Shown here one piece after another: positions 2,065-22,290 of a stretch of DNA of 24,000 nucleotides. The stretch is taken from positions 31,136 through 55,135 of the forward strand of contig WLOQ01000008.1 in the NCBI GenBank assembly GCA_009699245.1. Reading direction: 5' to 3'. The translations under genes were made by a program, and so were the position numbers. The stretch is from Actinomycetota bacterium. Lineage in GTDB: Bacteria > Actinomycetota > Thermoleophilia > Solirubrobacterales > Solirubrobacteraceae. Within the stretch, counting starts at the first letter, position 1; each line of letters begins with the position of its first letter. The notes under the pieces are model-generated. The model was not told the DNA's origin. It searched no databases and saw nothing but the letters and a program-made list of their open reading frames with translations.

Positions 2065-3477
2065 GTGACCAACCTCGCCGCCCAAGCTCCCGCAGGCCTC
2101 AACCGGCTGATGACGCCGCTCGTGATCCTCTGCATCGCGCAGTTCATGATCCAGCTCGACTTCACCATCGTGAACGTCGCACTCGAGCCGATCCAGTCGG
2201 ACCTCGGCTTCTCGGCCGGCGGCCTGCAATGGGTCGTGACGGGCTACGGGCTGACCTTCGGTTCGCTGCTCATCTTCGGCGGCCGCCTCGGCGACCACAT
2301 CGGCCGGCGACGGCTCTTCCTCATCGGCCTCGGCATCTTCGGCGTCGCGTCGGCCGTGTGTGCGCTCGCCGGGTCGCCCGCGCCGCTCGTCGCGGCGCGC
2401 ATCGTGCAGGGCGTCGGCGCGGCGCTGGTGGCGCCGATGGTGCTCGCGATCCTCACCGGCGTCTATACCGACGGCGCCGCGCAGGCCCGCGCGCTCGGCA
2501 TCTGGACCGCGTCGATGGCCGGCGGCGCGATGTCCGGAATCGTCCTCGGCGGGCTGCTGACCGACGCCTTCGGGTGGCGCGCCGCGTTCCTCGTCAACGT
2601 GCCGATCATCCTGCTGCTCCTCCCACTCGCGCGCCGCGTGCTGCCCGAGTCGCGCCCGGAGCACGCGCGCGGCCTCGACATCCCCGGAACCGCATGCATC
2701 ACGCTCGCGCTCGCGGCGCTCATCTTCGGGATGAGCAGCGGTGAGGAGCGCGGCTTCGGGTCGGCGATCACGATCGCCGCACTCGCGGCGGCGGTGCTCT
2801 TCGCGGCGGCGTTCTTCGCCGTCGAGCGCCGCGCGAGCGACCCAGCGGTGCCGCTCGCCTTCCTCGCCGCGCCGGTGCGCCGCACCTCGGCGCTCGTGTT
2901 GCTGCTCGTCAGCGGCGTGACGGTCGCCTACGTGTACTTCGTCGCGCTCTTCCTGCGCGGCGTGCTCGAGATGAGCGGCTCGACGACGTCGATCGCCTTC
3001 ATTCCCGGTCCGGTCGGCACGTTCATCTTCTCGCTCTTCATCACGCGCCACCTGATTGCGCGGTTCGGCCTGAAGACCGTCCTGCTCGCGGGGATCGTCA
3101 TGCTCGGCGTCGGCCAGCTCTGGCTCAGTGCGATTGCGAGCGACTCGTCGTACTGGACCGCCGTGCTCCCCGCGCTCATCCTCACCGGGTGCTCCTCGGG
3201 GCTCGTCGTCCCCGCGGTCGCCGCCGGGGTCGCGGCCGGAGCGACCCCGCGCGAGCGCGGTCTCGTCGGCGGCCTCGTTCCGACCTCCCAGCAGGTCGGC
3301 GGCGCGATCGGCGTCGCCGTGCTCGCGACGATCGCGGCGTCGGTCAGCGCGAGCCACGGCGGCGACCTCGCCACCGGGTACGGCCGCGGCTTCCTCGTGT
3401 CGGTGTTCGTCCTCGCGGCCCTGGCACTCCTCGTCGCGGTCACGTCGTTCCGCCCGCCCGAGTCCGCGCCGCACTAG
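2065..3477 (+). CDS. MFS transporter, DHA2 (EmrB/QacA-like, 14-TMS) drug/H+ antiporter family
   Basis: 470-aa highly hydrophobic ORF with a GTG start. MFS motif A is GGRLGDHIGRRRLFLIG. Length and helix count are typical of DHA2. Confidence 0.85.
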   Translation: MTNLAAQAPAGLNRLMTPLVILCIAQFMIQLDFTIVNVALEPIQSDLGFSAGGLQWVVTGYGLTFGSLLIFGGRLGDHIGRRRLFLIGLGIFGVASAVCALAGSPAPLVAARIVQGVGAALVAPMVLAILTGVYTDGAAQARALGIWTASMAGGAMSGIVLGGLLTDAFGWRAAFLVNVPIILLLLPLARRVLPESRPEHARGLDIPGTACITLALAALIFGMSSGEERGFGSAITIAALAAAVLFAAAFFAVERRASDPAVPLAFLAAPVRRTSALVLLLVSGVTVAYVYFVALFLRGVLEMSGSTTSIAFIPGPVGTFIFSLFITRHLIARFGLKTVLLAGIVMLGVGQLWLSAIASDSSYWTAVLPALILTGCSSGLVVPAVAAGVAAGATPRERGLVGGLVPTSQQVGGAIGVAVLATIAASVSASHGGDLATGYGRGFLVSVFVLAALALLVAVTSFRPPESAPH

Positions 3478-15931: not shown

Positions 15932-16705
15932 ATGCCCGCACTCGACCCTGCTGTCGCTCGCCGGCTGTGGCGCTGGAATGTCGGCGTCGGCGGCCTGCAC
16001 CTCGTCCAGGCGATCGTCCTACTCGTCATCGCGGGCGCCGCGACCCTCCCGGTGACGGCGAGCTACATGCTCGGCCCGCCCGGCGAGGGCAGCTACGGCG
16101 GACCGAAGGACCTCTTCGATCTGCGAATCGATCTCGCCATCGCTGCATTCCTGCTGCTCGCGGCGGTCGATCACCTCGGGACCGCGGTGCGGCCGCTGCG
16201 GCCGTGGTACGAGGCGAACGTCGCGCGTGGGATGAACCCCGCTCGGTGGTGGGAGTACTCGATCAGCGCCTCGCTGATGGTCGTGCTGATCGCGATGCTC
16301 TCGGGGATGACGGAGCTCGTTGCGCTCGTCGCCCTCTTCGGCGTCAACGCGTCGATGATCCTCTTCGGTCTCGTCATGGAGCGCGTGAACGTGGGGCGCG
16401 AGGCAGTGGACTGGCGGCCGTTCATCTTCGGCTGCATCGCCGGGGCCGTGCCGTGGATCGCGATCGGGATCCAGCTGATCGTCTCGACGACCGAGGGCGA
16501 CGGGGTCCCTGGGTTCGTCTTCGCCATCTTCGTCACGCTCTTCGTGCTCTTCAACACGTTCGCGATCAACATGTGGCTCCAGTACCGCGGGCGCGGCCGC
16601 TGGGCCGACCCCGTGTTCGCGGAGCGCGTCTATCTGATCTTGAGCCTCGTGGCGAAGAGCGCGCTCGCCTGGCAGGTCTACGGCGGCGCGCTCGCGGGGT
16701 CCTGA
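15932..16705 (+). CDS. Heliorhodopsin (retinal-binding seven-helix photoreceptor)
   Basis: 257 aa from ATG 15932; the upstream 352 codons of the listed ORF are antisense to the SBP gene. It is collinear with heliorhodopsin 48C12 as I remember it. Shared motifs are GLHLVQ (His23), RWWEYSISASLM (Glu108), FGVNASMILFG, FGCIAGAVPWI, VPGFV and LSLVAKSALAWQ (Lys242, codon 16655-16657). Confidence 0.9.
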   Translation: MPALDPAVARRLWRWNVGVGGLHLVQAIVLLVIAGAATLPVTASYMLGPPGEGSYGGPKDLFDLRIDLAIAAFLLLAAVDHLGTAVRPLRPWYEANVARGMNPARWWEYSISASLMVVLIAMLSGMTELVALVALFGVNASMILFGLVMERVNVGREAVDWRPFIFGCIAGAVPWIAIGIQLIVSTTEGDGVPGFVFAIFVTLFVLFNTFAINMWLQYRGRGRWADPVFAERVYLILSLVAKSALAWQVYGGALAGS

Positions 16706-18409: not shown

Positions 18410-18522
18410 GGGCCCCATCCTCGCCGATCAGGGCACCCTCCCGCGCAGCGGTCGCCCCGCCGCTGCCCCGCTAGTACGTTCGGCTCGACCGCCGCTCGGC
18501 GGCCGTGATCAGGAGGAAGATC

Positions 18523-20796
18523 GTGCTTCGACGTGTCCTCGCGCTCAGCGCGCTCGTGCTCGGCGTGGCCGCCCCCACCGCGGGCGCCGCGACGACCCTG
18601 AACGTCATCCCGCACGGCAACAGGGCGCCGGGTGTCTCCTGGGGCGGCGTCCCGGGCATGCTCCCTGCGGACACCTAGGCGAAGATGTACGACCGCCTGA
18701 CCCCGCTCTTTCGCAGCGTCACGGACGCCGCGCTCGTGCCGAGCACCGACGGTACCGGCTACTTCAAGTCCGCCGCGATCCTGCAGGAGAACGACCCGTC
18801 GTTCATCGTCAGCCAGACGGTCAGCGGGCGCGTCGGCGGGAAGACGGTCAGCGCGCGGATCAAGCGCGACGCCTACGGCGTGCCGTTCGTCTTCAGCGGC
18901 AGCGACGCCGGCGCGATCTTCGCCGCGGGCTACGTCGTCGCGACCGACCAGGCGCTGCTGCTCACGCAGGCGCGCTTCAACGGCCGCGCCGCGCTGATCG
19001 ACATGCCCGGCGTCTCCGCGATCCGGCTCGTCCTCGGGCTCTACAGCTATACGCCGAACGCGCGCATCGTGGCCGCTGCCGCGAGGCTCCAGACGAAGAA
19101 CATCCTGGCCCAGGGGGCACGCGGCAAGCAGCTCCTGCGCGACATCGACACGTACATCGCCGGCATCAACAAGCGCCTGAAGGAGGCGTCGCCGAGCGTG
19201 GCGAAGTTCACGCGCACCGACATCTACGCCCTCAACGCGATCAAGGCGCAGTTCCTCGGTGAGGGCGGCGGGAACGAGACGCAGAACGCGCTCTTCCTCA
19301 GCCAGCTGCGCACCACGCTCGGCGCGACGCGCGGCGATGGCGCCTTCAAGGACCTCCAGGCACGGGACGACCCGGAGGCCTCCGTCACGACGACGAAGGC
19401 CTTCCCCGCGCAGACCGCCGTGAGCGTCACGAGCCCGAAGGGCATGGTCCGGCTGCGCGCCGGCAGCTTCCGCTCCGCGTCCGTGACGCTGCCCGGGTCA
19501 TCCGGTCTGCGGGCGCTCCAGGACCCGAATCCCACGGGTCCGCGCCAGCTCGCGAGCAACATCCTGATCGTCTCGGGGTCGCGCTCGGCGACCGGCACGC
19601 CCGTCTTCGTCGGCGGTCCGCAGATCGGCTACAACTACCCCGGCCTGACGCTCGAGATGTAGCTGAGCAGCCCGGGCATCTCGGTCCGCGGCGCGACGAC
19701 GGCGCCCTACCCCGGCTACATGCTCATCGGTCGCGGGAAGGCGTTCGCCTGGACGCTCACCTCGGCCGGCGCCGACATCATCGACACGTACGCCGAGACG
19801 CTCTGCGGCGGGTCGAAGACGAAGTACCTCTTCAAGGGCCGCTGCCGCAGCATGGAGAAGGTCGCTGCGGGGACGATCTCGTTCGGCGCCGCGAAGACGT
19901 CGGCCACCTTCCACCGCACGGTCCACGGGCCGGTGATCGGCTACGCGACCGATGCGACCACTGGCAAGACGGTCGCGCTCTCGCGCCGTCGCTCGACCTA
20001 CGGCCGTGAGACGGTCGACCTGCTGTTCAACCAGCAGCTCACCTACGGCCGCGTCCACAACGCCCGCGAGTTCGTCAAGGCGGCGCAGAAGCCGCCGCAG
20101 ACCTTCAACTCGTTCTACGTGAGCGCCACCGAGTCGGCGTTCACCACGACGGGCCTGATGCCGATGCGGCCCGCCGGGGTCAATCCGACCCTGCCCGTCG
20201 ACGGCCGCGGGACGTACGAGTGGCGCGGCTTCCTCTCGGCGGCGGCGCATCCGTCCGCGATCAACCCCGCGAGCGGCCTGATCGTCAACTGGAACAACAA
20301 GCCGGCGAAGGACTTCCCCGCCGGTGACGGCCGCTTCGGCAGCGAGGGCGGGCTCCAGCGCAACCTGCTCCTGACGACGGAGCTGGCGCGCTACCCGAAG
20401 GCGAAGCTCGCGGACGCGGCCATGTGCACGACGCTCGGGGAGCAGGCCTGCTCCGAGCTGCGCGGCATGATCGGCATCTTCGACGCGCCCCTGGGCGGCG
20501 GCTACGGCGGCTGGCACCAGTACATGTGGAAGGACCTGCGCAGCGTCCTCGGGCAGAGCGTGACGGCGCCCTACACGGTGCGCTACTGCGGCGCCGGGGT
20601 CCTCGCAACATGCGCCGGCGACCTCTGGGCGGCCATCGCCGCCGGCGCCGCGGAGGCGGTCCCGGCCCTCGGCGCCGACCCGGCGGCATGGCAGGAGGCC
20701 GTGACCACCGTCGGGTTCTCCCCGGTCTCGCGTTACACGATGCAGTGGACCAACCGGCCGAGCGGCATCCACCAGGTCATGTCCTTCGGGCAGTGA
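18523..20796 (+). pseudogene. Penicillin acylase/amidase (Ntn-hydrolase) family gene with two in-frame TAG codons
   Basis: A single frame runs from GTG 18523 (AGGAGGA 5 nt upstream) to TGA 20794-20796. Sec signal peptide VLRRVLALSALVLGVAAPTAGA. Family motifs include YGVPFVF, the nucleophile region LASNILIVSGSRSATG (Ser codon 19555-19557), GGPQIGYNYPG and GRGKAFAWTLT. TAG codons at 18676-18678 and 19660-19662 split it into the listed 325-aa and 358-aa ORFs plus a 51-codon signal-peptide piece. Confidence 0.75.
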
Positions 20797-20829: not shown

Positions 20830-22290
20830 ATGCCCCGCGCGCGGCCGCTCGAACACGTCCACGTCGGTCCGCTGCCACCCGAGCGGTTTCGCTCGGTGGT
20901 GGATGACGACCGCTGGCGACTGCTCGACGCGGCCAACCACCGCGCGCGCTCGATCTTCGGCGCGCGCGTCGTCTGGAACGTCAACTCGACGGCGACCGGC
21001 GGCGGCGTCGCCGAGATGCTCCACTCGCTTACGGCCTACGCGCGCGGCGCCGGCGTCGATGCGCGGTGGGGCGTCATGGAGGCGGACGAGGAGTTCTTCA
21101 CGCTCACCAAGCGTCTCCATCACCTGCTCCACGGAAGCGCCGGCGATGGGGCCGGCCTGAGCCTCGCCGACCATGCGCTGTACGAGCGCGTCACACGGGA
21201 GAACGCGCAGCGCCTGGCGGCCGAGCTCTCGCCCGGCGACGTCGTCGTGCTACACGATCCGCAGACGGCGGGCATGGCGCCGGCCCTGGCGGACTGCGGC
21301 GTCGCGCTCCTCTGGCGCTCCCACATCGGGGTGGACGAGCCGAACGACGCGGTCCGAACCGGCTGGGACTTCCTCACGCCGTTCCTCGACGACGTCGACG
21401 CCTTCATCTTCACCCGCCGCGCCTACGTGCCGCCGCAGCTCGAGGGTCGGGACGTGAGCATCATCTGCCCGTCGATCGACGTCTTCTCCGAGAAGAACCA
21501 CCCGATGACCGGCGGGCAGATCGCCTCGGTCCTCGTAACCGCCCAGGTGCTGCACGGTGAGGTGACCGTCGCGCCGACCTACGTCACGCGCTCCGGCGGC
21601 CTTGAGCACCTCACGTGCCGCGCACAGATGGACGAGGACGCACCGGCCGGGCTCAACGACCGGCTCGTCCTGCAGGTCGGACGATGGGATCCGCTGAAGG
21701 ACCCCATTGGCGTGATCGAGGGCTTCGCGGAGCACGTCGCGGCATACGTGCCCGACGCCCACCTGATGCTCGCCGGCCCGGCACCCGAGGACGTCGACGA
21801 TGACCCGGAAGCCCTCAGCGTGCTCCACCGGGCGCGCGCCGTCCGCGCCGCGCTGCCCGCTGATGTGCGCGCGCGTGTGCACCTCGCCTGCGTGCCGATC
21901 TGCGACCGCGGCGAGAACGCCGCCGTGATCAACGCGCTCCAGCGTCACGCGACGGTGGTCGTCCAGAAGAGCCTCGCCGAGGGCTTCGGGCTCACCGTCA
22001 CCGAGGCGATGTGGAAGTCGCGCCCGGTGGTCGCATCCGCGGTCGGCGGGATCTGCGACCAGATCGTCAGCGGCGTCCACGGGCTCCTGCTCGACGATCC
22101 GACCGACCTGCCCGCCTTCGGCGCCGCCATCACGGCACTCCTCACCGATGCTCGCCGATCGGCGACGCTCGGGCGCGCAGCGCACGACCGCGTCGGCGCG
22201 GAATTCCTCGGCTCCCGGCACCTCATCCAGCTGCTCGGGCTGTTCGGCCGGCTGATCGACGAGCACGAGCGCGCCGCGAGCGCTGTGTGA
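20830..22290 (+). CDS. treT: GT4 glycosyltransferase, TreT-like (trehalose glycosyltransferring synthase)
   Basis: 486 aa. [18 protein letters not shown]...ARWGVM...[47 protein letters not shown] and [25 protein letters not shown] are collinear with archaeal TreT as I remember it. Confidence 0.75.

Follow-up and report, generated by a model that had tools for sequence, protein, structure and literature searches.

The window analysed here, a stretch of 24,000 nucleotides corresponding to G000:C18:31136–55135, belongs to a draft genome (G000) of 1.95 Mb in 19 contigs, with 71% GC and rated 99.4% complete; the closest relatives that bear a name are Baekduia and Conexibacter. On its forward strand lies a gene of the penicillin acylase family which extends over 757 codons without any frameshift, is interrupted by two in-frame TAG codons and lacks a segment found in its homologues (Table 1).

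The start region and catalytic residues are in agreement with the original prediction, which described a strong ribosome-binding site, a GTG start, a signal peptide, an N-terminal nucleophile (Ntn) serine and 755 sense codons. The Shine-Dalgarno sequence is followed by an N-terminus which, in translation, resembles a Sec signal peptide, and the nucleophile could be placed by alignment with penicillin G acylase (PGA). Ser345, within the motif ASNILIV, is invariant across 23 orthologues, as are both N589 and N591 of the NWNN motif, the asparagine of which we take to form the oxyanion hole, as in PGA. With the TAGs read through, the protein matched the penicillin amidase family PF01804 with an E-value of 2.2e-72 (245.5 bits, cut-off 21.3), although this match spans only profile positions 2–421 of 675.

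Table 1 Features of the acylase locus and nearby genes, in window positions.
Feature	Position	Strand	Basis or remark
Heliorhodopsin gene, intact	15932–16705	+	PF18761, E = 1e-93; tail to tail with PPK2
Shine-Dalgarno sequence AGGAGG	18511–18516	+	6 nt upstream of GTG start; read from sequence
Acylase frame	18523–20796	+	Single-frame translation: 755 sense codons, ends in TGA
Piece 1: GTG start, signal peptide, first 51 codons	18523–18675	+	Translation
First TAG, codon 52 (PADT*AKMYD)	18676–18678	+	
Piece 2: alpha subunit, linker, beta-subunit residues 1–35	18679–19659	+	PF01804 match
Phe122 (TTC) in GVPH motif	18886–18888	+	His (CAC or CAT) in 23 of 23 orthologues
Nucleophile Ser345 codon	19555–19557	+	Aligns with PGA beta-chain residue 1
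Second TAG, codon 380 (LTLEM*LSSPG)	19660–19662	+	35 codons after Ser345
Piece 3: rest of beta subunit, including NWNN motif	19663–20793	+	Translation; TGA follows
N589 codon of NWNN motif	20287–20289	+	NWNNKP aligns with NWNNKP of solved PGA
Deletion junction 20409/20410 (KAKL/ADAAMC)	20404–20415	+	79 codons, in frame
Terminal TGA of acylase frame	20794–20796	+	
TreT-type trehalose synthase, intact	20830–22290	+	PF21269, E = 8e-45; 33 nt after acylase stop; outside lesion

Downstream of the acylase follow treT, an AI-2E transporter and pfk, identities which had been predicted beforehand and which Pfam bore out, and no terminator-like site was found on the forward strand between the acylase and treT. 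The TreT, AI-2E, LLM and PPK2 proteins of the window had no match in the short flanks (ca. 0.8–1.5 kb) of 14 orthologous acylase loci. As these flanks contain neither treT nor the upstream genes, the acylase-treT-AI-2E-pfk string appears to be particular to this lineage, at least over the 0.8–1.5 kb that the orthologue flanks cover. One orthologous locus, L010 (G024:C1:16769–21391), from a genome of the same genus (64% complete, ca. 10 contigs), matches the acylase in three pieces lying in separate open frames, which suggests that the gene there either has two frameshifts or was misassembled.

Lesions in the acylase gene

The protein was compared with its relatives in alignments of 9, 120 (database) and 23 (orthologue) sequences. 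The database homologues are 809–855 aa long, at most 70% identical to the window protein, and mostly named Baekduia or Conexibacter. At codon 52, glutamine is present in all 120 database homologues, encoded by CAG in each of the 12 orthologous loci for which DNA was available. Codon 380 is more variable: 87 of the 120 homologues have glutamine and the remaining ones glutamate or aspartate, whilst in the 23-relative alignment each of the 13 sister-clade rows has glutamine at this position (encoded by CAG in L002 and L004, the two rows with DNA) and more distant orthologues have glycine, aspartate or serine. With CAG at codon 52 throughout and at codon 380 across the sister clade, each TAG appears to be a single C-to-T transition away from an ancestral CAG. 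Looking up the residue at the two positions in homologues had been proposed with the original prediction, and it returned glutamine at both, in the case of codon 380 in the sister clade.

The public gene calls divide the locus into proteins of 51, 325 and 358 aa, the two larger of which match PF01804, and it is conceivable that the pieces function as genes of their own, the open-reading frames at 18685–19662 and 19720–20796 encoding the two parts of an active split acylase. We consider this extremely unlikely. As had been predicted, the second TAG falls 35 codons beyond the nucleophile and away from the alpha/beta processing site, given that Ser345 corresponds to the first residue of the PGA beta chain, and the first break does not coincide with this site either. 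The nucleophile would be carried by the alpha-side piece and separated from the core of the beta subunit; neither piece 2 nor piece 3 has a signal peptide, the ca. 20 residues encoded between 19663 and 19719 would be missing, and no homologue is split in such a manner.

The alignments revealed a further lesion, the absence of 79 consecutive beta-subunit codons which none of the 23 orthologues or the 120 database homologues lacks. The lost segment corresponds to residues 633–711 of the intact Baekduia alba homologue (P0020), and 17 of its 79 columns are invariant across orthologues spanning several families of the order. In a sequence search against solved structures, P0020 aligned without a break to PGA beta chains (beta residues 1–369), the lost segment equating to approximately beta 283–358 of 6nvw_B as counted on the printed alignment. 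This continuous alignment argues against a lineage-specific insertion as the origin of the segment. Its loss is also reflected in the end of the PF01804 match, at profile position 421 in the window protein versus 588 in P0020. In the orthologue L004 a 9-nt direct repeat, TCGCCAACG, is found at both borders of the segment, so that the deletion may plausibly have arisen by slippage, or by recombination, between short direct repeats. Additionally, the histidine of the GVPH motif is replaced by phenylalanine at residue 122 (H122F), a change that requires two nucleotide substitutions.

The gene had originally been described as intact except for its two ambers; the TAGs at 18676 and 19660 and the unbroken frame are confirmed, whereas the 79-codon deletion and H122F show that the remainder of the gene is not intact. 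The profile match, the Ntn serine and the NWNN motif place the protein in PF01804, but the two TAGs and the 79-residue deletion leave neither an uninterrupted precursor open-reading frame nor a complete beta subunit, as a functional member would have. The window acylase thus appears to belong to the family by descent and not as a functional member.

The same allele in other metagenome assemblies

That the allele might be an artefact was one of the options raised by the original prediction, and one or both TAGs, or the deletion, could stem from faulty sequencing or assembly of this genome bin, which is a draft in 19 contigs. Exact look-ups of the two larger open-reading-frame products found them in five assemblies in ENA (ERZ28612979, where the copy is located on a 927-kb scaffold, ERZ28612946, ERZ28612958, ERZ27263765 and ERZ27280162), each with identical gene calls at the locus (51, 325 and 358 aa). 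These five assemblies represent at least three BioSamples and two contig-naming styles, though they may share raw data with G000. Contigs L047–L050, from ERZ28612979, ERZ28612946 and ERZ27263765, share 100% nucleotide identity with the window across 3.1–7.1 kb and cover both TAGs as well as the deletion junction, whilst the contigs from ERZ28612958 and ERZ27280162 are 99.9% identical and cover both TAGs, the few differences being situated at contig ends. With the same allele in several other, independently assembled metagenomes, at least five in all, and the deletion junction spanned in three of them, an error is in our view exceedingly improbable, and the allele evidently exists as DNA in the natural population.

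Single-nucleotide differences at 20180–20304 in contigs L051 and L052 were not used: they are confined to contig ends, and L051 has a chimeric tail. The last 204 nt of L051 (L051:3808–4011, ERZ28612958 scaffold_72913) are unrelated, lower-GC sequence joined at window position 20241, an assembly chimera.

TAG as a terminator in this genome

We examined whether TAG is decoded or terminates translation in G000 using its tRNAs, release factor and gene ends. No tRNA with a CUA anticodon was present among 49 tRNAs detected with Aragorn, and PylS and PylD were not found (PylS_Cterm 26 bits, cut-off 178; PylD 21 bits, cut-off 150), so that none of the components of a pyrrolysine decoding system that were searched for (PylS, PylD, tRNA-Pyl(CUA)) was detected; this search had likewise been proposed beforehand. 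The release factor RF1 (prfA) is present, with 440.8 bits and above its cut-off. In the window, TAG is the stop of 9 of the 20 other complete genes obtained with codon-score gene calls, including those ending at 3475, 6293, 7151 and 14705, which bears out the original count of nine.

A genome-wide screen for stops with coding signal on both flanks (GC3, codon score) returned dozens of candidates, and 18 of these were translated across the stop and searched for Pfam domains. Thirteen proved to be pairs of adjacent genes that share a frame, the first of which terminates at the stop in question (TAG without exception), as between Obg-type GTPase and ProB, M23 and Lgt, adenylate kinase (Adk) and Map, PPIase and Aldh, dGTPase and DnaG, PdxS and PdxT, ribosomal protein S9 and GlmM, GrpE and DnaJ, and PntA and PntB, among others. 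Ending housekeeping genes directly ahead of a same-frame neighbour, TAG is to all appearances a working terminator in this genome. By a count based on coding signature, the stops following coding-like open-reading frames genome-wide are approximately 66% TGA, 31% TAG and 3% TAA.

Reassignment of TAG to glutamine or pyrrolysine, globally or in part, would be consistent with the fact that every confirmed in-frame stop within a gene is a TAG (the acylase has two and a P-type ATPase has one). This pattern is, however, the one that mutation would be expected to generate at the codon usage of G000 (CAG 4540, TGG 1919, CGA 292 and CAA 111 in a training set of 162,000 codons). With TAG terminating many housekeeping genes besides those of the window, RF1 retained, and neither tRNA(CUA) nor PylS or PylD found, we regard the probability of reassignment as close to negligible; global reassignment had already been dismissed in the original prediction, and the genome-wide data concur.

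Among the scanned candidates, a domain spanning the stop was found in only one further gene, a P-type cation ATPase of 947 codons (G000:C17:7324–10164, minus strand; L034:825–3665, outside the window) with a single in-frame TAG at codon 280, a position occupied by leucine, glutamine, tryptophan or arginine in relatives. Its DKTGT and TGDGVNDAPAL motifs are intact, and the gene is probably another nonsense pseudogene of G000. Another candidate, L021, with two TAGs, was taken to be an antisense shadow of a gene family; its matches in relatives all contain many internal TAGs. A third stretch, L023 (G000:C18:3311–5113, minus strand, outside the window), yielded no Pfam match; there, matches of relatives to the upstream gene extend ca. 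30–55 residues past an in-frame TAG at residue 301 of the stretch, which may mean that a nonsense mutation has shortened the C-terminus, or else that the alignments overrun.

Termination could also be incomplete at the acylase TAGs in particular. Low-level readthrough, by a near-cognate tRNA-Gln or through a context effect, would yield some full-length secreted acylase and leave the gene functional or regulated; both TAGs do occupy positions where glutamine is expected, a tRNA-Gln(CUG) that could misread UAG is present, and the frame is otherwise open with its codon bias intact. Two successive stops would nevertheless multiply the penalty, RF1 is present, and any product would still carry H122F and be without the 79 conserved residues. 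Furthermore, CAG to TAG is the commonest nonsense route at the above codon frequencies, and the ATPase is the only other TAG-interrupted gene among the scanned candidates. With no suppressor tRNA or pyl genes found either, site-specific readthrough, which the original prediction had allowed for, is very unlikely. The stronger version, in which near-cognate readthrough of both UAGs supplies a trickle of secreted acylase that tolerates the loss of the 79-residue helical segment, we hold to be less likely still. Were it true, a genome-streamlined freshwater actinobacterium would be keeping a ‘leaky’ gene under weak selection, and this could account for the intact codon bias and the lack of frameshifts.

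Age of the inactivation and dispensability of the gene

The codon composition of the interrupted gene is like that of its neighbours, with a GC3 of 0.96 and a codon score of 0.49–0.58 per codon in the three large segments, whilst the 51-codon piece 1 is lower in both (GC3 0.90, codon score 0.27). A maximum-likelihood tree of 24 sequences groups the window protein with the 13-row clade as its sister (support 100/99); its terminal branch is 0.37, compared with sister paths of 0.25–0.41, and is at most ca. 1.2–1.5 times longer than these. The window protein has three unique changes at otherwise invariant sites, a rate which, for this branch length, does not stand out from the other rows of the balanced set of 24. 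An apparent excess of changes at conserved sites (15 versus at most 7 in other rows) in a leave-one-out comparison with the 120 homologues was rejected; it is confounded, as the window protein is sister to the whole homologue set, and disappears in the balanced set.

The intact codon bias, the ordinary branch length, the ordinary rate of change at invariant columns and the absence of frameshifts suggest that purifying selection maintained the gene through almost all of its past and that its inactivation is recent. An unbroken frame over 757 codons and an intact codon bias are equally what a functional gene would exhibit, hence if the gene is inactive its inactivation must be recent. The original prediction had held that further inactivating changes in homologue alignments would point to an old, decaying pseudogene; such changes were indeed found, in the deletion and H122F, but the decay they belong to appears young.

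The penicillin acylase family is represented by a single copy in G000 and by one to several copies in its relatives. An acylase match is absent from 5 of 24 genomes of the same genus (50–92% complete), which argues that the acylase is dispensable in this group. The near-complete relatives compared (at least 90% complete) are mostly 1.7–4.0 Mb and G000 is smaller than most of them; loss of the acylase fits this small genome size.

A probable young pseudogene of a secreted acylase

Taken together, the locus is very probably a unitary pseudogene, and a young one, derived from a secreted Ntn-hydrolase in the penicillin/AHL-acylase family, a reading drawn from comparative sequence analysis. It is homologous to intact genes, carries three lesions and has no intact paralogue in G000. 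The recent double-nonsense pseudogene that the original prediction had listed among its options is thereby favoured, with homologue alignments consistent with a change of CAG to TAG at both sites. As a pseudogene, it is an ordinary case.

In the mechanism we propose, C-to-T transitions would have converted glutamine codons to TAG at codons 52 and 380, and a 237-bp in-frame deletion would have removed 79 residues of the beta subunit that are conserved family-wide, probably via slippage or recombination at short direct repeats coding for Leu/Ile-Ala-Asn/Asp. The two TAGs and the deletion would be three independent lesions, accompanied by the replacement of an invariant histidine with phenylalanine. 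Translation most likely halts at codon 52, which would release a 51-residue peptide and presumably no active enzyme.

The locus would be better labelled as a pseudogene than as the three small open-reading frames of the public gene calls, and it captures an early stage of gene loss in a small genome of high GC content. In-frame TAG at glutamine positions is what mutation alone yields at the codon usage of this genome, and should therefore not be read as evidence of recoding, which nothing here supports. Beyond annotation, the reach of this finding is small.

Comparison with known acylases

The closest known relatives are the penicillin acylase family proteins of Baekduia and Conexibacter, such as Baekduia alba DSM104299_05437 (P0020), with which the window protein shares 63–70% identity over the shared length. 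It has their signal peptide, SNILIV and NWNNKP motifs and domain order, and also their GVPH motif, save that the histidine, invariant in these proteins, is phenylalanine in the window copy. The Baekduia and Conexibacter homologues are uninterrupted over their full 809–855 aa, unlike the window copy, with its two TAGs and its loss of residues 633–711 (P0020 numbering).

Penicillin G acylase (PDB 6nvw chain B and 1gk9 chain B) is a distant relative only. The intact homologue aligns with it at E = 3e-51, over a range including the NWNN motif and the segment lost in the window copy. In contrast to the solved PGA, the window copy could not make a beta chain. The acyl-homoserine-lactone acylases of the PvdQ type belong to the same Ntn-hydrolase family, and many of the homologues bear this name in the JGI annotation; the window protein is not a PvdQ orthologue, however, scoring 35.6 bits against a cut-off of 950 for the NCBIfam PvdQ equivalog.
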